From the IMG/VR virus record IMGVR_UViG_2939162341_000002: a stretch of 37,948 nucleotides of DNA. The stretch is one strand, 5' to 3'. Position numbers and translations under genes: made by a program. Of the stretch, positions 1,659-12,584 are shown in pieces. This stretch comes from a virus. Its lineage: Duplodnaviria; Heunggongvirae; Uroviricota; Caudoviricetes. The notes beneath the pieces are model-generated. The model saw nothing but the letters and a program-made list of their open reading frames with translations. It ran no database searches and was not told the origin of the DNA. Position 1 is the first letter of the stretch. The number at the start of each line of letters is the position of its first letter.

Positions 1659-3587
1659 TTAAGAATCAGCCTGACTCGGGATCAGTTTTTGCCAGATAAC
1701 TGAAACGTATTTTGCCTGGTAACGGGCGTCATCAAGTGCATTATGGCGCTCACCTTCGAATGGAATAGCCGTTCTGGCATCGAAGTCTATGGCTTTCCCC
1801 AGCTCAACGATTGTGCGTACATCGCGATCGTTGTAGTAACGCCACGGGCAGGGGATCCCCTGCCGTTCGTATGAACGGCGCAAAATCGTGTTGTCGAAGT
1901 TGGCTCCATTTCCCCAAACCTGAACAAAAAATTCACCGGAGTTTTCGTCGATAAATTCCCGCAATTGTAACAGTGCATCATCTAACGGGATTTCATCGGT
2001 CATAATGGCAGATTGCGATTCGCGTGATTGCTTAAGCCACCATTTAATGGTGTCCCGATCAATGACTCCGCCAGCAGTTTCCAGATCGATAGTCTTACTA
2101 AATTCCGGTCCCATATCTCCGGTTTGCGGATCGAAAAATATTGCACCTATTGAGATGATCGGGGCATCAGGATTTTTTCCCATGGTTTCAAGGTCGATCA
2201 TTAGATGGTCACACGTCCTGCTGGTGGATGTGATTTCGTGATGACCGTTCACCTTAATTGGGTGATCTGCCGTCTCGCCAGTTTCATTATCGCTATTGTG
2301 ATGCTGATTGCCGCCAGTGTTCTCCTTGTGTGGATGTTCAGCGCCTTCCATTTCCTCCGGATCATCTTCCTGAACTTCAACCTGATACTCTTCATCGAAT
2401 GTTTCTTGGTATGTTGCGTCGCCCATCACCGCGCCACAATCAGGGCAGTTGCCGCCGCCGGTCTGACCGCAGGCGGTGCAGGCTTTTTCCACTTCCTGGT
2501 GCGCCACTGGTTCAGGCTGTTTCGTTTCTGGCTCGTTTTGTAACGCATTTGGACTGTTTTGTTCCGCTTTTTGGTAGTTCCGTTCCGATTCATGCTGGTT
2601 CTGGTTCACAGAATCGCGGGTCTGGATCCCCTTAACCCATTTCGGATCATTCGGGTCACTAATCCCTTCAACAAATTCACCACGTGATGCAGCAAGCAAC
2701 TTATCGGCGTCAGGCTGGCTGATATTGGCTGCCTGCATAATTTTGTTTACTTCGTCAGCGGTAACTTTTATCGGCTCTGGTTGTTCTGAATCTTCAGCGG
2801 TATCTACATTTTGCGGTAAGCCCGTGTATGTGCCATTTTTTCGGGCAAAATATTCTTCTTTTGTGATTTCAGTGGCGCCAGCAGCCAGTGCCTTATCCAG
2901 ACCAGAAAGTTTGTTTGCGCGACCGTATTTTTCTCCGTCCTTATCTGCGAAGAGGAAATAGAACGGCCCCTCACGCTCTACAGATGGTTCAGCTTCCGGC
3001 GCGGTTTCATTTTTTGGGATATCAGATACCTCAGTTTCCACTGCATCAGTTTGTGTTTCTGATGACTGGAGAACATCAACAGTGCCCAGGTCTGTTTCTT
3101 CATTCTCAAACACGCCCTTTGTCGTCAGGTATTCGCAGATATATTTGTTCAGTGCTACGGGATCTTTGTGAATGTCGATCGGACGCTCACGGACAAGGCC
3201 AAAAATAGTTTGGCGGTCGTAGCGAAGGGCATCAGGCTGTTTGCGCATTGATGCCGAGATACGCTTCCAGTCTTCGCGGTCGTTGTCGATAACTTCTTTT
3301 TTTGCCCAGCGATGGATGCTGCCGTCAATGTTTCCGGCATCCACATCACCAGGCCAGAGAGCGTAGGCCAGTTCGTCATCCAGTGTTTTCCATGTCTGCT
3401 TGTATTCGCGATGAATGGCAGCAATGACCGGGCTGATTTTTCCTGTTGAATTTTCAGTGTACTGTTGATTGGCTCTGGCGCGGGCGAGATCAACAACAGA
3501 CGTGTATTTTCCGGTTTCCTTGCGTTCACCTTCGCGACGTTTTTTCCAGATGCGCATCTCTGCCTGAATTTCGGGTGATGCTGCCAA
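1659..3587 (-). CDS. Prophage exonuclease with C-terminal DnaQ-like 3'-5' exonuclease (DEDDh) domain; 5' end runs into IS1, so likely truncated or promoter-less
   Basis: C-terminal region has DEDDh-type motifs (MIDLETMG, NGANFDNTILRR, HNALDDARYQAKY); central CxxC...CxxC zinc-ribbon (CTACGQTGGGNCPDCGAV). The ORF-finder start (TTG) lies inside the IS1 terminal repeat, so the native 5' end is lost or displaced. Confidence 0.75.
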   Translation of the reverse strand: MAASPEIQAEMRIWKKRREGERKETGKYTSVVDLARARANQQYTENSTGKISPVIAAIHREYKQTWKTLDDELAYALWPGDVDAGNIDGSIHRWAKKEVIDNDREDWKRISASMRKQPDALRYDRQTIFGLVRERPIDIHKDPVALNKYICEYLTTKGVFENEETDLGTVDVLQSSETQTDAVETEVSDIPKNETAPEAEPSVEREGPFYFLFADKDGEKYGRANKLSGLDKALAAGATEITKEEYFARKNGTYTGLPQNVDTAEDSEQPEPIKVTADEVNKIMQAANISQPDADKLLAASRGEFVEGISDPNDPKWVKGIQTRDSVNQNQHESERNYQKAEQNSPNALQNEPETKQPEPVAHQEVEKACTACGQTGGGNCPDCGAVMGDATYQETFDEEYQVEVQEDDPEEMEGAEHPHKENTGGNQHHNSDNETGETADHPIKVNGHHEITSTSRTCDHLMIDLETMGKNPDAPIISIGAIFFDPQTGDMGPEFSKTIDLETAGGVIDRDTIKWWLKQSRESQSAIMTDEIPLDDALLQLREFIDENSGEFFVQVWGNGANFDNTILRRSYERQGIPCPWRYYNDRDVRTIVELGKAIDFDARTAIPFEGERHNALDDARYQAKYVSVIWQKLIPSQADS

Positions 3588-3628
3588 CTTACTGATTTAG
3601 TGTATGATGGTGTTTTTGAGGTGCTCCA

Positions 3629-3904
3629 GTGGCTTCTGTTTCTATCAGCTGTCCCTCCTGTTCAGCTACTGACGGGGTGGTGCGTAACGGCAAAAGCACC
3701 GCCGGACATCAGCGCTATCTCTGCTCTCACTGCCGTAAAACATGGCAACTGCAGTTCACTTACACCGCTTCTCAACCCGGTACGCACCAGAAAATCATTG
3801 ATATGGCCATGAATGGCGTTGGATGCCGGGCAACTGCCCGCATTATGGGCGTTGGCCTCAACACGATTTTACGTCACTTAAAAAACTCAGGCCGCAGTCG
3901 GTAA
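3629..3904 (+). CDS. insA: IS1 InsA
   Basis: 91-aa ORF with Cys-rich N-terminus ([28 protein letters not shown]), recognised as IS1 InsA from memory. Confidence 0.93.
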
Positions 3905-4326
3905 CCTCGCGCATACAACCGGGCAGCGATGTGATTGTCTGCGCTGAAATGGACGAACAGTGGGGCTACGTAGGTGCTAAATCACGTCAGCGCTGGCTGT
4001 TTTACGCGTATGACAGGATACGGAGGACGGTTGTGGCGCACGTCTTCGGTGAACGCACTCTGGCCACACTGGAGCGTCTTATGAGCCTGCTGTCGGCCTT
4101 TGACGTGGTGATATGGATGACGGATGGCTGGCCGCTGTATGAATCCCGCCTGAAGGGAAAGCTGCACGTAATCAGCAAGCGTTACACTCAGCGCATTGAG
4201 CGACATAATCTGAATCTGAGACAACATCTGGCAAGGCTGGGACGGAAGTCACTGTCGTTCTCAAAATCGGTGGAGCTGCATGACAAAGTCATCGGGCATT
4301 ATCTGAACATAAAACACTATCAGTAA
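3823..4326 (+). CDS. insB: IS1 InsB (transposase, made as InsAB' by -1 frameshift)
   Basis: 167-aa ORF overlapping the insA 3' end in the -1 frame, characteristic of IS1. Confidence 0.93.
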
Positions 4327-4387
4327 GTTGGAGTCATTACCGAATCGCAACGTAGTTATTATCATATAACAGCTTGTTTCCTGATTT

Positions 4388-4417
4388 AGCCAGCCTCCCC
4401 AAAGGCTGGTTTTTTTC
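4388..4417 (+). terminator. Rho-independent terminator (hairpin plus T7 run)
   Basis: AGCCAGCCT-CCCCAAA-AGGCTGG followed by TTTTTTT, directly right of IS1. Confidence 0.6.
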
Positions 4418-4444
4418 TAATAAGTATCATTTCGGGTGGGGATT

Positions 4445-4969
4445 TTATTGTTTAACCCATAATAGTTCATTGACATTGAATCCCAACTTTTGAGCGGTAC
4501 GCACATAGTCTGCTTTTACATTATCTGGAATAGTTTGGGTCCTTGCCAGAATCCATAGGTATTCTCTGTTCGGACCACTGACAAGAGCATACTTATACTC
4601 ATCATCCAGCTTGATTACATTATAGCCACCATAGAAGGGGCCAAAAAACGAAACTTTCAACGCTGCAGTTTTAGTATCTCCAGTAAAGTATGCTTTACCT
4701 TCGCTCTCGCTCCATTTGTTTTTCGTTGGATCGTATCCACGGTTAAGTACGCGAATCCCTCCGTCGTTCCGTTTTTCATAAGTAGCGCTGACCTGTTCCA
4801 GACCACGTTCGAACCAGTTCTCGAGGCGAGCTATTTCATACCATTTTCCGAGGTAGCGGTTGGCGTCAAAATTTGTAATCGGCTGCACACCTTTAGGTGG
4901 TGTCGGGGCCTTACATGCTATAAGAGTGAAAGAGAGTGCAATGCCAGTCAACACAGGCCATAACTTCAT
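4445..4969 (-). CDS. Outer-membrane lipoprotein of the bacterial lipocalin family (Blc-like paralog)
   Basis: 174 aa; lipoprotein signal peptide with lipobox (LIAC); lipocalin motifs shared with E. coli Blc as recalled (FDANRYLGKWYEIAR, GKAYFTG, ALKVSFFGPFYGGYNVI). Confidence 0.85.
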   Translation of the reverse strand: MKLWPVLTGIALSFTLIACKAPTPPKGVQPITNFDANRYLGKWYEIARLENWFERGLEQVSATYEKRNDGGIRVLNRGYDPTKNKWSESEGKAYFTGDTKTAALKVSFFGPFYGGYNVIKLDDEYKYALVSGPNREYLWILARTQTIPDNVKADYVRTAQKLGFNVNELLWVKQ

Positions 4970-5161
4970 AATAAATCCTGTACTTTTGATAGTTGAGAGT
5001 AAGTATGAAAGATAGATGAGTACGACCGATCACTTAAAGAACTTTCCTACTATATTAGGAATAGTCAATAACAGAAAAATTGTCAGTGATGAAGCCAGAA
5101 AGGCAATTTAGTCCGTGCACTACAAAGTTTATGTGTTAATGAATTAGTCAAGGGGGAGGAA

Positions 5162-6121
5162 ATGATAAAAAAACCTGTGATTGGGATCAGCGGTTGTTTG
5201 GGCGGTTCTGCTGTTCGTTTTGATGGTGGTCACAAAAGAGATGACTTTTTAATGGACAAATTAGTGGAATGGGTAACATTCAGACCAGTATGTCCGGAAA
5301 TGGCTATAGGGCTGCCAGTTCCGCGTCCTGCTCTACGACTTGTGCGCTCGAAGCAAGGAAATATACGGATGTGTTTCAGCCACGACCAGAATGAGGATGT
5401 GACAGAGAGAATGACAGAGTTTAGTCGTTCTTATATGGACAAATTAAAGGATGTATCGGGGTTTGTGGTTTGTGCTAAATCTCCCAGCTGTGGCATGGAG
5501 CGCGTGCGTGTCTATGGTGAAAATGGTAATCGAGGTCGTAAAGATGGAGTGGGACTATTTACGAGCACTTTGATGGAAAAGTTTTCCTGGCTACCGGTTG
5601 AAGAGGATGGGCGATTACATGATCCAGTGCTTCGTGAGAATTTTATTGAAAGAGTTTTTGCTTTGCATGAGCTCAATCACCTTTACAAGGAGAAATTATC
5701 AAGAAGAGAGTTATTAGCTTTTCATAGTCGTTATAAGCTTCAGTTGTTGGCGCATAGCCAGGCAGGCTATAAAGATATGGGACCATTTGTGGCTGCAATA
5801 CACGAGTGGGCGGACCTTGAATCATACTTTGAGGTGTATCGTGATAATCTGATGGCGATTCTCAGAAAACCAGCATCACGTAAAAATCACACGAATGTGC
5901 TGATGCATATACAGGGGTATTTTAGTAATTACTTAAGTACACGCCAGCGTAAAGAGTTGAGCGAGGTTATACTTAACTATCGCTTTGGCACATTGCCTCT
6001 TCTTGCGCCGTTGACTCTGCTGAAGCATTATCTGGGTGAGTATCCTAATGATTACTTGCTTACACAGAATTACTTCGATCCCTATCCGGAAGAACTGGCT
6101 CTAAGACTGATGGTGAATTAA
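5162..6121 (+). CDS. DUF523 (TudS-like thiouracil desulfidase fold) fused to DUF1722 (YbgA-like) protein
   Basis: N-terminal Cys motifs typical of DUF523 (GISGCLGG, VCPEMAIGLPVPRP, KSPSCG); C-terminal half resembles YbgA (NHTNVLMHIQGYF, LPLLAPLTLLKHYL); strong RBS AGGGGGAGGA 2 nt upstream of the ATG. Confidence 0.7.
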   Translation: MIKKPVIGISGCLGGSAVRFDGGHKRDDFLMDKLVEWVTFRPVCPEMAIGLPVPRPALRLVRSKQGNIRMCFSHDQNEDVTERMTEFSRSYMDKLKDVSGFVVCAKSPSCGMERVRVYGENGNRGRKDGVGLFTSTLMEKFSWLPVEEDGRLHDPVLRENFIERVFALHELNHLYKEKLSRRELLAFHSRYKLQLLAHSQAGYKDMGPFVAAIHEWADLESYFEVYRDNLMAILRKPASRKNHTNVLMHIQGYFSNYLSTRQRKELSEVILNYRFGTLPLLAPLTLLKHYLGEYPNDYLLTQNYFDPYPEELALRLMVN

Positions 6122-6527
6122 CTGTATGCGATATCATCTGAAAGTGATGAGTTCCTGTATGCAGGATATTTACAATCGTAAAAACTACGCTATGATGCTC
6201 ATAGTGTCAGTTTTTATAAAAATCCTGTTCACGCTAAAGAAAACATTGAGATGCAATTTAATGTTGGTAAACATACCAGCCCCAAACGATTTTATTCAAT
6301 CTGTTTTTATATGAAGATATTTCAAGTGAATATTAAGAGCATATAATATTATTATTGCACGCAGCTATTATAATATAACAGATTAGTTTAATGATTTGTT
6401 TTTTGTGAGTTAAACACATGGTTTTATAGTTGTGATGCAATGAGATTTTCCTTATTGTTGAACTGGCGAATATTGATTTTCCACCTATACTTACCTGGTG
6501 TAACCCCAATGATATCAGGTGGATAAT

Positions 6528-7241
6528 ATGCCATACATATGTTCTATCATTTTGGTGTTGAACTCGTTTGGTGTCCGAATTGGTAAAGAAGATATTTTGT
6601 TTAAAAAAGGAAATGCTGTCCTCATTGAATACAATTTAAAAGATCTTTTTTCGTCAAATACAGATCATCTAATGATCGTAGATGTTGAGGAGAAAACAGT
6701 TAATGATTTCTTTAAAAACTACACACTCTCACCTTTTTCTGTAAGAAGGTTTTATCCGTCATACTTGATAGTAGAATGTGAAGATTTTTCATTGTTAAAG
6801 AACTTGGTTGCATGCTTGAATTGTGATAGCAAAACCGTGGATGTAGTTAGAAATCAAATATCACTTGCATGTCTTGCTGTCTTATCTTCAGAGAAAATAG
6901 TGCAAAGTTTTTTGTTCGGAAGTCTTAATAACTTAGGTTGTAAAGTTAAGGCTATTATTCACTCGGATATCTCAGCGTCATGGAGACTTTGTGATATATC
7001 TTCAAGATTATATATGAGCGAGAGTTTGTTAAAAAGAAAATTAAAAGACGAAGGATTATCGTTTAGTAAATTAATTCTTGAAGAACGAATGATGATGGCG
7101 CAAAGATTATTGATCTACAGTAACCATACTGTCGGCAAGGTGGCGGGAATATGCGGGTATGACAATGCATCATATTTTGTAAGTGTTTTTAGAAGATATT
7201 TTGGTGTGCCTCCGCACCAATATTTATCAAGATTTTCTTAG
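6528..7241 (+). CDS. AraC/XylS-family transcriptional regulator (AppY/PatE-like), AT-rich
   Basis: C-terminal AraC-type HTH region (MAQRLLIYSNHTVGKVAGICGYDNASYFVSVFRRYFGVPPHQY); N-terminus resembles AppY-type prophage regulators; visibly AT-rich. ORF-finder start is GTG at 6519; ATG at 6528 has RBS AGGTGG. Confidence 0.8.
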   Translation: MPYICSIILVLNSFGVRIGKEDILFKKGNAVLIEYNLKDLFSSNTDHLMIVDVEEKTVNDFFKNYTLSPFSVRRFYPSYLIVECEDFSLLKNLVACLNCDSKTVDVVRNQISLACLAVLSSEKIVQSFLFGSLNNLGCKVKAIIHSDISASWRLCDISSRLYMSESLLKRKLKDEGLSFSKLILEERMMMAQRLLIYSNHTVGKVAGICGYDNASYFVSVFRRYFGVPPHQYLSRFS

Positions 7242-7310
7242 AAGATATGATGTGATGGTATTTTATAAAGTTATTTTTTGAAGTGTAAGATTATACGATA
7301 TTTTTAGCTA

Positions 7311-7340
7311 CGCCAGAATAATTGCTGGCGTTTTTCTTTT
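7311..7340 (+). terminator. Rho-independent terminator upstream of holin (tR'-like position)
   Basis: CGCCAG-AATAATTG-CTGGCG hairpin followed by TTTTTCTTTTT, about 90 bp upstream of the holin ATG. Confidence 0.55.
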
Positions 7341-7431
7341 TGAATAGATGTTCGGGCCTTACGCTAATGTAACTTCTTTCCTTCTTCGAACCAAACCGTG
7401 TACACCATCCGTTATCTGCGGAGGTGAGGCT

Positions 7432-7647
7432 ATGAAATCCATGGATAAGTTAACAACGGGCATCGCCTACAGCACCTCTGCAGGCAGTGCTGGCTACTGG
7501 TTTTTACAGTTGCTCGATAAAGTCACACCCTCACAGTGGGCGGCAATAGGTGTATTGGGTAGTCTGGTATTTGGCATGCTGACGTATCTGACAAACCTTT
7601 ATTTCAAGATTAAAGAAGACAGGCGTAAGGCTGCGAGAGGAGAGTAA
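7432..7647 (+). CDS. Class II holin (phage 21 / Stx-phage S type) with dual-start motif
   Basis: 71 aa from ATG at 7432 with RBS GGAGGTGAGG upstream; begins MKSMDK (Met1-Lys-Ser-Met4); two hydrophobic segments and a charged C-terminus ([13 protein letters not shown]). The ORF extends upstream to 7348 but that part lacks an RBS. Confidence 0.85.
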
Positions 7648-7651
7648 GACA

Positions 7652-7870
7652 ATGACTAAAAACTATGAACTGATTGTGAAAGGGACCCGCAATTTTGAGA
7701 ATAAAGTTACGGTAATCTTAACGTTACAGGACAAAGAACGTTTTGCCGGTGAAATTTTTGATCTGAACATCAACCTTGAGCGACTTGAAGGAGCTGGTTT
7801 GGATTATTATGAAGTTACTGCGGTAAAACATGCCAAACAGTTCTTGAGAGATTTGGCTGAAAAAATATAA
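7652..7870 (+). CDS. Hypothetical protein (72 aa) translationally coupled to holin
   Basis: ATG 4 nt after the holin stop; RBS AGAGGAGAG lies inside the holin 3' end; AT-rich; no recognisable domain. Confidence 0.5.
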   Translation: MTKNYELIVKGTRNFENKVTVILTLQDKERFAGEIFDLNINLERLEGAGLDYYEVTAVKHAKQFLRDLAEKI

Positions 7871-7888
7871 AGCGGCATTACTGCCGCT
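7871..7888. terminator. Bidirectional hairpin between convergent genes
   Basis: AGCGGCA-TTAC-TGCCGCT perfect 7-bp stem, A-rich on the left and T-containing on the right, between the stops of the convergent 72-aa and 98-aa genes. Confidence 0.55.
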
Positions 7889-7894
7889 TAGAAA

Positions 7895-8191
7895 TTATTC
7901 AATGTCTGGTAGCTTATCAAAGATTTCGGATACTCTTATATTTGTCATATAAGCAAATTGAGATTCTGCCAGCTCTTTGGGTGATTTTCCCGCTTTTTCT
8001 GAGCCAAAAATTGTTTCTAAAGCCAGCATGTTATATTTGAGAACCTCTTCTCGAGTTTTACCTGATAATTTTGCGGTAACAGCAATATAAAAAGGCAACA
8101 CTTTATCCAGAAGGTCGTTGTGTTTTGTCAGTTGTGGTAATACCACATCAAGTTGCTTACTGATTGGTTTGAATGGATCTATACCGTTCAT
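7895..8191 (-). CDS. Hypothetical protein (98 aa), transcribed opposite to the late operon
   Basis: Clean ATG start with upstream AAGGGA; 128-bp divergent intergenic region shared with the endolysin gene; no recognisable domain; predicted soluble. Confidence 0.5.
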   Translation of the reverse strand: MNGIDPFKPISKQLDVVLPQLTKHNDLLDKVLPFYIAVTAKLSGKTREEVLKYNMLALETIFGSEKAGKSPKELAESQFAYMTNIRVSEIFDKLPDIE

Positions 8192-8318
8192 AGTTACATT
8201 CCCTTATCAGAGGTAATCAGCCATCCCCCCTTTATTACACACGCCAGTATCCACCACTGACGGGCTGAGTGCTTAACATATCTAGAGATTAGAAACTGAT
8301 AAATCCTGATAAATATCC

Positions 8319-9346
<1,028 letters not shown>

Positions 9347-9709
9347 ATTAATATTAAATCGGATTATTTTTAGCGCTGAATGTGAAATTTAAATAAAAAG
9401 GACTCTTCCATGAGTCAAAATCCTTGAAATCTTAAGGGTAAGATAAAAGGTCATTAGACAGAATGACACGTTTTATTAATAAATAAAGCTATTGTTTCAT
9501 TCGTGTGTTTTTCTTTACAAAAGTAATCCTTGCTATGGTTGGTTAATCATGCGTTAATGGTGTTCTGGTTTGTTACAAAATTATCTGAAGCAGTCATTGT
9601 TATAATTTTATTATTTGTACCTCTTGAGATTTCCTTGTTGGTTTTTCTCTCTGATATTTTTTTTCGGACCATTCTGCCCAAGGGCTAACTTCTTCAAAAG
9701 GTAATAATG

Positions 9710-9922
9710 ATGTCTAACAAAATGACTGGTTTAGTGAAATGGTTTAACCCTGAAAAAGGTTTTGGTTTCATCACGCCGAAAGATGGTAGCAAAGATGTGT
9801 TTGTCCATTTCTCAGCTATTCAGAGCAACGATTTCAAAACGTTAACTGAGAATCAGGAAGTCGAATTTGGTATTGAGAACGGACCTAAAGGCCCCGCGGC
9901 TGTTCATGTTGTGGCACTTTGA
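9710..9922 (+). CDS. cspI: Cold-shock protein, CspA family (CspI-like)
   Basis: 70 aa; [38 protein letters not shown] matches CspA-family RNP motifs; roughly 360 bp upstream non-coding leader as in cold-shock genes. Confidence 0.9.
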
Positions 9923-10121
9923 GGTAGAAAATATTACAAACCATATTCACTTTAGATGCCCGTGTTGCCATGGTTCTCAGTATAGAACATCATCTTTTGA
10001 TGTTTCTGACAGGAATCCTTTCGGGGCAAAATGTATCTTTTGTAAATCAATGATGATTACATTTGATAATATTTCACAATACTTAAATGTTAGCCGTCTG
10101 TCGTTAGATTTAAGAAAGTGA
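9906..10121 (+). CDS. ynfN: Small Cys-rich protein (YnfN-like, Qin-type)
   Basis: Contains [19 protein letters not shown]...CIFCKS; the first in-frame ATG (9906) overlaps the cspI 3' end, so the true start is uncertain. Confidence 0.5.
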
Positions 10122-10770: not shown

Positions 10771-11172
10771 TCTGTTTATAGCATTAGCATCAATTTCTCA
10801 TCAGATGCTATTCAACAATACAAATTACCCATAAACCTCGTTTTTACGGGGTTTTGTTATATTTAAACATTACCGAATAGGTATAAATCTCGATTGTCGA
10901 TGGTATTGGTTGTGTGACAATACCTAGTCTTTTCGGTATGCCTGAAGAGAATACAAACGACAGATTATGTAAGGGAAACGCGCTGAATCTTTCACTCTTT
11001 CATGCTGAGTGATTTGACGTTATATTTTTAGCCGTAAGTGAAGAGCAAACGCATGGAGCGACAAAATGCATAAAGATCAATACACTGATGCCCCCTCCCA
11101 GGAGCAGGTTCGTGTAAAAACTATGCTTAATAGCACCATTTCTGATCCTACCCACGTAATATGGACACAGGC

Positions 11173-12039
11173 CTAAGCGAGGTTCTTGTTTTCAAATTGT
11201 TCCGGACTGAGGCCGCCACACCAACTGTGCCGCCGCCACCGATTGTAATCACATTCGATATAATTAAACACCGTTGCCCGCATTATTTCCCGGCTGATAA
11301 AGTGTTCTCCATGGATACATTCCACTTTCAGCGAATGAAAGAAGCTTTCCACGCAGGCATTATCGTAGCAGCAACCTTTTGCGCTCATACTTCCACGCAG
11401 ATTATGCCGCTTCAGTTGCGCCTGATAATCTGCTGAACAGTACTGGCCTCCACGGTCCGTGTGAACGATAACGTTCCGGGGCCTCTTACGCCGCCACAGC
11501 GCCATCTGCAGGGCATCGCAGGCCAGTTGCGCCGTCATGCGTGGCGACATTGACCAGCCAATAACGGCACGTGACCACAGGTCAATGACCACTGCCAGAT
11601 ACAGCCAGCCTTCATCTGTACGTAAGTACGTGATGTCTCCTGCCCACTTCTGGTTCGGGCCACTGGCGTAAAAATCCTGCTCCAACAGATTTTCTGACAC
11701 AGGCAGGCCGTGTGCGCGGTAGCTGACCGGGCTGAACTTCCGGGAGGCCTTTGCCCTCAGTCCCTGACGGCGCAGGCTTGCCGCCACGGTTTTTACGTTA
11801 AAGGGGTAACCCTGAGCACGCAGTTCATCCGTCAGGCGTGGGGAACCGTAACGCTGTTTTGACCGGGTAAAAGCCGCGAGGACAACGCTGTCGCAGTGTT
11901 GGCGGAACTGCTGACGCGTGCTTATCCTTGTCCGCCGCTGACACCACGTATACCAGCCGCTGCGGGCCACCCGGAGCACGCGGCACATTGCTTTGATGCT
12001 GAACTCAGCCTGATGTTTTTCAATAAAGACATACTTCAT
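11173..12039 (-). CDS. insF: IS3 transposase OrfB (InsF, DDE integrase domain)
   Basis: 288-aa ORF recognised as IS3 InsF; overlaps orfA in the -1 frame as in IS3-family frameshift fusions. Confidence 0.93.
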
Positions 12040-12344
12040 TTCAGGCGCTTCGCGAAGTATGTCGCGGCCTTTTGGAGGATAGCCAGCTCTTCATCCCGTT
12101 CTGCCAGCTGGCGTTTGAGACGTGCAATCTCGGTAGACATCTCCAGTTCACGTTCAGAAGACGTCTGCTGATTTTGCTGTTTACTGCGCCAGTTGTAGAG
12201 TTGTGATTCATACAGGCTGAGTTCACGGGCTGCGGCAGTAACACCGATGCGTTCAGCAAGCTTCAGGGCTTCACTGCGAAATTCAGGCGAATGCTGTTTA
12301 CGGGGTTTTTTACTGGTTGATACTGTTTTTGTCATGTGAGTCAC
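12036..12344 (-). CDS. insE: IS3 transposase OrfA (InsE, HTH)
   Basis: ~100-aa ORF recognised as IS3 InsE ([32 protein letters not shown]...). Confidence 0.93.
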
Positions 12345-12401
12345 CTCTGACTGAGAGTTTACTCACTTAGCCGCGTGTCCACTATTGCTGGGTAAGATCA
12401 A

Positions 12402-12584
12402 AAGGCTGTCGTCCAGGTTCTGGAGACAATTCCGGATGTTCTTGAACGCGATTGCGCCCTGACTCCTCAGGCCGTTGGCGTTGTACAGCAGGCCATTGAT
12501 GACCTGCGATACACTCTTCAGGAAAAATCCTACGAGGCTTGTGCTGCTGAATTAATTCCTGATGAGGAAGGAGAGAGTCTCTAG
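12402..12584 (+). pseudogene. 3' remnant of the terminase small subunit gene, truncated by IS3
   Basis: Open frame starts exactly at the IS3 boundary with no start codon and ends in a TAATG stop/start overlap with the large terminase ATG, the usual small/large terminase coupling. Confidence 0.6.

Follow-up and report, generated by a model that had tools for sequence, protein, structure and literature searches.

How does a lambdoid prophage come to carry three non-phage genes where its recombination, immunity, replication and Q genes would be expected? The question is raised by IMGVR_UViG_2939162341_000002, a 37,948-nucleotide stretch of DNA recorded as a virus of the Caudoviricetes (the whole stretch is called the window here), in which a lipocalin gene, a gene coding for a DUF523-DUF1722 fusion and an AraC-type regulator gene lie between insertion sequence IS1 and a holin gene. 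An earlier note on this DNA, made from its letters alone, read the three genes as a cargo block that replaces the early and regulatory region. We found that the window is a stretch of Escherichia coli chromosome with a defective Qin-type lambdoid prophage adjoining rspB/ynfA. Strains ZH142, L37 and others are 100% identical to it across 12.5 kb. The three genes are cargo in the slot between Q and the holin gene S, and the early genes were lost separately.

The slot between Q and the holin gene

The three genes described in the earlier note are all present as intact, Pfam-supported open reading frames (ORFs; Table 1). As it reported, the lipocalin gene and the fusion gene, which we call rudS, diverge across an AT-rich region of exactly 192 bp, and an AT-rich AraC-type gene (here araC) comes directly before an S21-type holin gene, the right-hand border of the slot. 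The block begins at 4342, the first base past IS1, and ends at 7347, the last base before the long holin ORF. Its GC content is 44% in the lipocalin gene, 43% in rudS, 33% in araC and 31-37% between genes. The comparison with phage genes that the note proposed bears it out, as the 33-44% of the cassette genes deviates from the phage backbone, with 54% in the structural genes. Also confirmed for the window is the absence of recombination, immunity, replication and Q genes between an exonuclease remnant and the holin gene.

The isolated lambdoid phages 1H12 and IdasGreatGrand have these three genes directly between Q and the holin gene, with order and orientation unchanged. The intact Qin-like prophage of STEC1575 has a cassette about 99% identical to that of the window (99.8% over the block; 98.8% over 4342-7812). 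There it is preceded by the exonuclease gene, ydfD, dicB, repressor/cro-like genes, ydaT, replication genes, hokD, ydfU and Q, and the order after Q is lipocalin, rudS, araC, essD, ydfR, rrrQ, rzpQ and cspI. Among 5426 complete E. coli genomes, 1154 (about 21%) have a match to the cassette, at least 80% of its length is matched in 888, and 1076 genomes cover a probe that spans the junction of Q and the lipocalin gene. In 72 of 80 viral loci from IMG/VR, the genes follow one another as Q (plus strand), lipocalin (minus), RudS (plus), AraC (plus) and holin (plus). In the K-12 Qin prophage (NC_000913.3, 1640.6-1642.5 kb), ynfS, cspF, cspB and ynfU occupy the same slot between Q and essQ; sister prophages at one integration site carry alternative cargo there. 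From the gene order in the phages and in STEC1575, the genome and viral counts and the K-12 Qin prophage, it follows that the cassette is cargo of the classical Q-S moron slot. That the genes are non-phage cargo, as the earlier note proposed, is supported.

What did not hold is the idea of a replacement. No target duplication is found at IS1, and the flanking 9-mers differ (TGAATTTCG vs GAATCGCAA). Window positions 1972-3575 correspond to positions 1-1604 of the STEC1575 locus, and the window from 4342 corresponds to that locus from 14001. Missing at IS1 are 12,396 bp of the intact STEC1575 prophage, from the exonuclease N-terminus through Q. What remains of the exonuclease is its C-terminal part, an ORF at 1659-3587 that codes for 642 aa including an Rv2179c-like 3'-5' exoribonuclease domain; the full gene in intact relatives has 2472 bp (about 823 aa), and its N-terminus was removed here by the IS1-linked deletion. 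On its right-hand side, IS1 is followed by DNA homologous to 1H12 and IdasGreatGrand from 4342/4343 onward, about 52 bp past the Q stop codon. The tR'-like terminator of the late transcript is kept in the window. A promoter-like TTGCTG-17-TAATGT, read by eye just upstream of the junction point in the phages, may be their pR' and would have been lost here. The cassette abuts the int-xis-exo end of the prophage because about 12.4 kb, including the early region, was lost in a deletion associated with IS1. Since intact phages and prophages have both the early region and the cassette, and since IS1 marks the junction of a deletion, the block did not replace the early genes. It stands in its normal Q-to-holin slot. 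We regard this anatomy, a composite moron in the Q-S slot of a prophage that lost its early region by an IS1-linked deletion, as settled.

Table 1. Features of the three-gene block and its borders, in window coordinates
Feature	Position	Strand	Details
IS1, 768 bp	3574-4341	+	ends GGTGATGCTGCC...GGAGTCATTACC; deletion junction, outside the cassette
Late-transcript leader remnant with tR'-like intrinsic terminator	4342-4418	+	stem 4388-4411 and T-run; terminator scan
26-nt late-leader repeat	4350-4375 and 6359-6384	+	22/26 identical, 2009 bp apart; 0 matches expected by chance
Lipocalin gene	4445-4969	-	174 aa
Divergent AT-rich control region, 192 bp	4970-5161	.	34% GC
18-bp palindrome TTCCTACTATATTAGGAA	5044-5061	.	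in the lipocalin/rudS spacer; kept among phage versions
rudS (DUF523-DUF1722 fusion)	5162-6121	+	319 aa
Terminator-like hairpin and T-run	6187-6216	+	65 nt past the rudS stop; consensus scan only
AraC-type gene	6528-7241	+	237 aa from the RefSeq start; 240 aa from GTG at 6519
Terminator-like hairpin and T-run	7310-7341	+	after araC, upstream of the holin gene; consensus scan
S21-type holin gene (essD/essQ-like)	7432-7647 (RefSeq start); longer ORF from 7348	+	Pfam Phage_holin_2_1, E=6e-34

Other parts of the prophage are also altered. An IS3 element lies at about 11147-12404, between gnsB and the terminase genes, and the small-terminase/DUF1441 gene beside it is truncated in the RefSeq annotation of identical strains. 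Together they are a further sign of a defective prophage. Strain T16R is among those with two IS3 copies that inverted the segment. Between ydfR and the lysozyme gene, 496 bp (7813-8308) stand in place of 137 bp in the intact STEC1575 prophage. The segment cuts ydfR to 72 aa and has an ORF on the minus strand (7895-8191, 98 aa, phrog_25324) without a Pfam match; it is another small moron, within the lysis cassette. An Rfam scan of the window returned a cspA-type thermoregulator RNA alone (RF01766, 109.8 bits; 9552-9968), outside the three-gene block, where it precedes cspI (9707-9922), a cold-shock gene of the prophage.

Histories of the lipocalin-rudS pair and of araC

To determine where the cargo has relatives, we took RudS homologues of 66-75% identity from 64 species genomes. 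A lipocalin gene (68-80% identity, mostly 75-80%) is divergently upstream of rudS in 45 of 62 loci, with two mis-binned contigs left out. These two (L060 and L065), short contigs of a metagenome-assembled genome named 'Candidatus Nanosynbacter sp.', match RudS at 92-97%, the lipocalin at 97%, AraC at 85% and the holin at 94%, and are almost certainly E. coli prophage DNA. Similar to the window, C. sedlakii and Citrobacter sp. JGM124 have the lipocalin gene and rudS directly adjacent. In Enterobacter, Leclercia and others, the two are separated by a gene for a MerR/MlrA-like regulator and another for a transthyretin-like protein. Genes for a BCCT transporter, a pseudouridine synthase and an aspartokinase surround chromosomal rudS, and the chromosomal lipocalin-rudS loci contain neither phage genes nor a homologue of the window AraC protein. 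The earlier note had named ordinary chromosomal contiguity, with no prophage, as an observation that would count against its reading. Such contiguity is found in other Enterobacteriaceae for the lipocalin gene and rudS, and not for araC.

The chromosomal copies also differ in their control. In Enterobacter, Leclercia and relatives with the MerR/MlrA-like and transthyretin-like genes, a conserved MlrA-like dyad, ACTTGGACA-N12-TGTGTAAGTT, is located about 60 bp upstream of rudS (loci L018-L071 of our set; L030, with rudS at 7001, is an example). The dyad fits the repression of Salmonella orf319 (RudS_ST), which is repressed by MlrB and MlrA via such an operator. A search for the MlrA/MlrB operator (AATTGTACA-N10-15-TGTACAATT, at most 6 mismatches) found none in the window or in three phage and prophage versions of the cassette. 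One weak dyad spotted by eye, AAATTGTC-N17-GGCAATTT, was dropped as it failed the criteria of this search. Salmonella orf242, considered as a counterpart of araC, was ruled out because it is the MerR-like MlrB. Given that the dyad is absent from the phage cassettes and that MlrB and MlrA repress orf319, the phage copy of rudS has lost its native repression system, both the regulator gene and the dyad.

The third gene has a different record. In the same phage pairs, synonymous divergence (dS) is 0.33-0.59 for araC vs 0.04-0.30 for the lipocalin gene and rudS, 2-7 times higher in araC. The blastn alignment of the window with 1H12 is broken at 6239-6433, and a 26-nt piece of the late leader recurs exactly at this seam of the lipocalin-rudS and araC modules. 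Of the three cassette subtypes, two have the leader repeat and the 1H12 type lacks it. The repeat may be the scar of a recombination that joined two morons or, as it contains TATAAT, may act as a second -10-like or pause element. The lower GC content, the higher dS, the break in the alignment and the leader repeat at the seam argue for a separate history of araC. They favour a cassette of two modules, the lipocalin-rudS pair and an independently acquired AraC gene. The ratio of nonsynonymous to synonymous divergence (dN/dS) is 0.07-0.27 across all three genes, so all three are under purifying selection and are maintained by it.

These observations bear on a rival account, a single block inserted in place of the early genes and working as one regulated unit with the AraC protein controlling the lipocalin gene and rudS. 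In most loci the genes lie side by side and are inherited together, the divergent region has a conserved palindrome, and with its MerR-type regulator and operator lost, phage rudS may have been taken over by another regulator. However, phages and prophages with an intact early region hold the cassette as well, and the IS1 junction is that of a deletion. The GC content of araC, its much higher dS and the recombination seam also set it apart from its neighbours. Its relatives ECs_0287, AppY and a gene of mEp332 are found in other prophage slots, without a lipocalin gene or rudS, and the region upstream of araC shares no operator-like motif with the divergent spacer. A single regulated block is therefore quite unlikely in our view; the three genes are neighbours in a cargo slot rather than a demonstrated functional unit.

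The three proteins and their transcription signals

The rudS product matches PF04463 (DUF523/2-thiour_desulf) over residues 7-149 (E=2e-39) and PF08349 (DUF1722) over residues 192-309 (E=9.4e-40). It is 92% identical, without gaps, to RudS_vir, which is gp66 of phage 1H12. Cys12, Cys44, Cys110, Glu46, Ser107, Ser109 and Arg55 are all kept in the window protein (positions from Table 1 and the text of PMC11417400), and the structure of TudS (6Z92) aligns to its residues 6-114. RudS is a [4Fe-4S] desulfidase of TudS-DUF1722 architecture that converts 4-thiouridine (s4U) in tRNA to uridine (Jamontas et al., NAR 2024, PMC11417400). s4U is the ultraviolet A (UVA) target that sets off growth delay, and overexpression of RudS in E. 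coli lowered tRNA s4U and shortened the UVA-induced delay (PMC11417400). RudS_vir was itself assayed, lowering tRNA s4U and giving the shortest lag on 4-thiouracil (PMC11417400). With a 92%-identical protein assayed, the assignment of the window protein as RudS, an eraser of tRNA s4U8 that would reduce the UVA sensitivity of translation, is well supported by homology. The earlier note had linked DUF523 to thiouracil desulfidation. The TudS desulfidase fold agrees with that link, but the function it names is outdated for the fusion, which is RudS, a tRNA s4U eraser with an assayed orthologue. The same paper describes E. coli as lacking RudS (PMC11417400); this is true of K-12 and not of the roughly 21% of complete genomes with the prophage gene.

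The lipocalin belongs to Lipocalin_2 (Pfam, E=7.5e-43) and scores 312.6 bits against the NCBIfam Blc subfamily, above the cutoff of 267. Its lipoprotein signal, MKLWPVLTGIALSFTLIAC, has a LIAC lipobox with Cys19 and Lys at +2; by the +2 rule, such a protein is sorted to the outer membrane. Family membership thus points to an outer-membrane lipid-binding lipoprotein of the Blc subfamily. The protein is 96% identical to 1H12 gp65 and shares no more than about 63% of its residues with E. coli Blc (PDB 3MBT); it is thus a paralogue and not a copy of the host protein.

The AraC protein matches HTH_18 (E=1.8e-17) and HTH_AraC in Pfam. Its best full-length NCBIfam match is YdeO (NF007407), at 111.5 bits vs an equivalog cutoff of 348. 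A score so far under the cutoff rules out a YdeO orthologue; what the protein shares with YdeO is no more than the wider group. Its closest characterised relative is the probable PatE, Sakai ECs_0287, from the sole AraC-type gene of prophage Sp1, with 48% identity along 100% of the length. Identity to AppY and YdeO is 30% and 28%, in line with the AppY/PatE-like regulator that the earlier note had recognized. All source-named homologues in a search of 5.8 billion proteins, in which most matches carry no source name, are from E. coli; as far as they show, the gene occurs only in phages and prophages of E. coli. An AlphaFold model (predicted local distance difference test score 89.5) gave CsvR, Rns and ToxT as best full-length fold matches. 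Since the template modelling scores are about 0.45 with a large root-mean-square deviation, control by a fatty-acid ligand is only a lead from the model. PatE, PsrB and AppY activate acid-resistance genes of the gadE/hdeAB type (reviews PMC10877973, PMC10057817). By analogy, at 48% identity to a probable PatE, the window protein may be an activator of stress or acid-resistance genes.

The spacer between the lipocalin gene and rudS is conserved among the phage versions and showed no conservation when aligned with chromosomal Citrobacter spacers. Its palindrome, TTCCTACTATATTAGGAA, is a candidate operator for some regulator. No LexA box was seen in the spacer by eye, and the only motif that the cassette repeats upstream of araC is the leader piece. 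Terminator-like sites in the region number six vs 1.9 expected. Those following rudS and araC suggest that the two genes are separate transcription units.

Roles of the cassette and its known counterparts

Overall, we consider it probable that the block is a composite moron, or lysogenic-conversion, cassette in the slot from Q/pR'-tR' to holin S of a Qin-type prophage. The RudS cluster, a [4Fe-4S] held by three Cys residues, would convert s4U8 of host tRNA to U, leaving less of the UVA photosensor and a shorter near-UV growth delay. The lipocalin would be exported, lipidated to the outer membrane and, in the manner of Blc, handle fatty acids or lysophospholipids there. Probably kept silent by H-NS until stress sets in, the AraC protein would activate host stress and acid-resistance promoters like PatE, PsrB and AppY. 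In Q-proficient phages, rudS and araC would also be read through from pR' late in infection, with the Q-modified polymerase passing the terminator-like sites after both genes. In the window, where Q and pR' are missing, the two genes would rely on their own promoters.

Several points weigh against this reading. The three genes are co-inherited in about 90% of loci, leaving room for a functional link between the modules. Sites resembling sigma-70 promoters are no commoner in a scan than in shuffled sequence. RudS_vir, though well soluble, had the weakest tRNA desulfidation of the RudS variants assayed (PMC11417400). ECs_0287 is itself only a probable PatE (z0321, OI-8), an assignment based on the O-island listing of a review (PMC10877973) and our own mapping of OI-8 to Sp1, and at 48% identity to it a regulon would not be transferred with confidence.

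Could the cassette instead serve the lytic cycle? In that case rudS and araC would be late genes transcribed from pR' under Q antitermination, and stripping s4U would prevent the stalling of late translation at UV-induced cross-links in tRNA or evade a host response directed at tRNA. Both genes are co-oriented with the late operon between tR' and S, they are under purifying selection in plaque-forming phages, and the role of s4U as the UVA target behind growth delay (PMC11417400) suits such a use. On the other hand, rudS and araC each have a terminator-like site of their own behind them, and the lipocalin gene is antisense to late transcription. Late expression follows UV exposure and would come too late to prevent the cross-links. 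An intact, identical cassette in at least 29 genomes with the Q-less arrangement fits selection in the lysogen, though recent shared ancestry could also explain it. We think a lytic role unlikely.

A third possibility is that the cassette is a passenger without current function, DNA that is decaying or has been silenced for good, in a prophage made defective by IS1 and IS3 insertions, the loss of Q and the truncation of ydfR. AT-rich DNA such as the araC region is a typical H-NS target, and some strains have cassette copies that are frameshifted or IS-disrupted. Against this stand three intact ORFs in the window, a complete set of RudS catalytic residues, the low dN/dS of all three genes and the cassette's presence in 21% of complete E. 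coli genomes. Inert DNA is thus very unlikely, and a maintained lysogenic-conversion cassette in the Q-S slot is the better account.

A more speculative scenario, to which we give little credence, is that the AraC protein replaced the MerR/MlrB-type repressor at the divergent lipocalin-rudS promoters, perhaps responding to fatty acids like Rns and ToxT, or alternatively that RudS has a late function protecting phage translation after UV induction. If such a takeover had occurred, lysogens, about one fifth of E. coli, would gain a regulated, phage-supplied switch that erases the s4U8 photosensor and is coupled to envelope lipid handling.

The block is a real and common feature, and most of it can be explained: it is a new allele of cargo already known from phages and does not substitute for the early genes. 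A literature search on lipocalin, DUF1722 and prophage gave nothing relevant, its one match being to mammalian lipocalin-2. The "YbgA family protein" annotated in about one fifth of complete E. coli genomes can now be linked to the recently defined tRNA de-modifying enzyme RudS. Contrary to the literature, E. coli is not uniformly RudS-negative, and prophages could determine how strains differ in their tRNA s4U content, in UVA growth delay and in the stringent response. The cassette also clearly illustrates the capture, by phages, of a chromosomal gene pair that had lost its native repressor system, and it adds a PatE-like protein to the group of AraC regulators through which prophages rewire acid and stress regulons. 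For specialists in phages or tRNA modification, none of these points is surprising.

Each part of the cassette has a known counterpart. Like RudS_vir, the window protein is a TudS-DUF1722 fusion of 319 aa with the Cys12/44/110 ligands and the Glu/Ser/Arg catalytic residues, and its gene has the same neighbours and Q-S position. It differs by 27 substitutions and is encoded in a Q-less defective prophage, where expression from the late promoter is impossible. The chromosomal rudS loci (E. cloacae; Salmonella STM1389/orf319 with MlrB) encode the similar RudS proteins described above and, in most Enterobacter and Leclercia and some Citrobacter, a divergent lipocalin 75-80% identical to that of the window. 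They have their own MerR/MlrA-like regulator, a transthyretin-like gene and the dyad before rudS, all lacking from the phage cassette, whereas the cassette has araC downstream and intergenic DNA that cannot be aligned with theirs. The lipocalin shares with E. coli Blc (PDB 1QWD/2ACO/3MBT) the Lipocalin_2 fold, the lipobox and a score above the subfamily cutoff, but belongs to a rudS-linked paralogue group and not to the ampC-linked blc genes.

The AraC protein resembles PatE, PsrA/PsrB, AppY and the host YdeO in size, in its N-terminal M..CS motif, in its dual helix-turn-helix C-terminus and in the AT-rich gene. Like PatE, PsrA/PsrB and AppY it is prophage-borne and restricted to E. coli by its named homologues, although its gene is in the Q-S slot and not near the tail-fibre end. 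As a whole, the cassette is similar to other lambdoid Q-S morons, such as stx in Stx phages and cspB/cspF in K-12 Qin, in its insertion slot downstream of pR'/tR', its deviant GC content, its own terminator-like sites and the different cargo that sister prophages have at this position. It differs from them in bringing a set of genes for stress tolerance, not a toxin, and in its two modules joined at a repeated piece of the leader.

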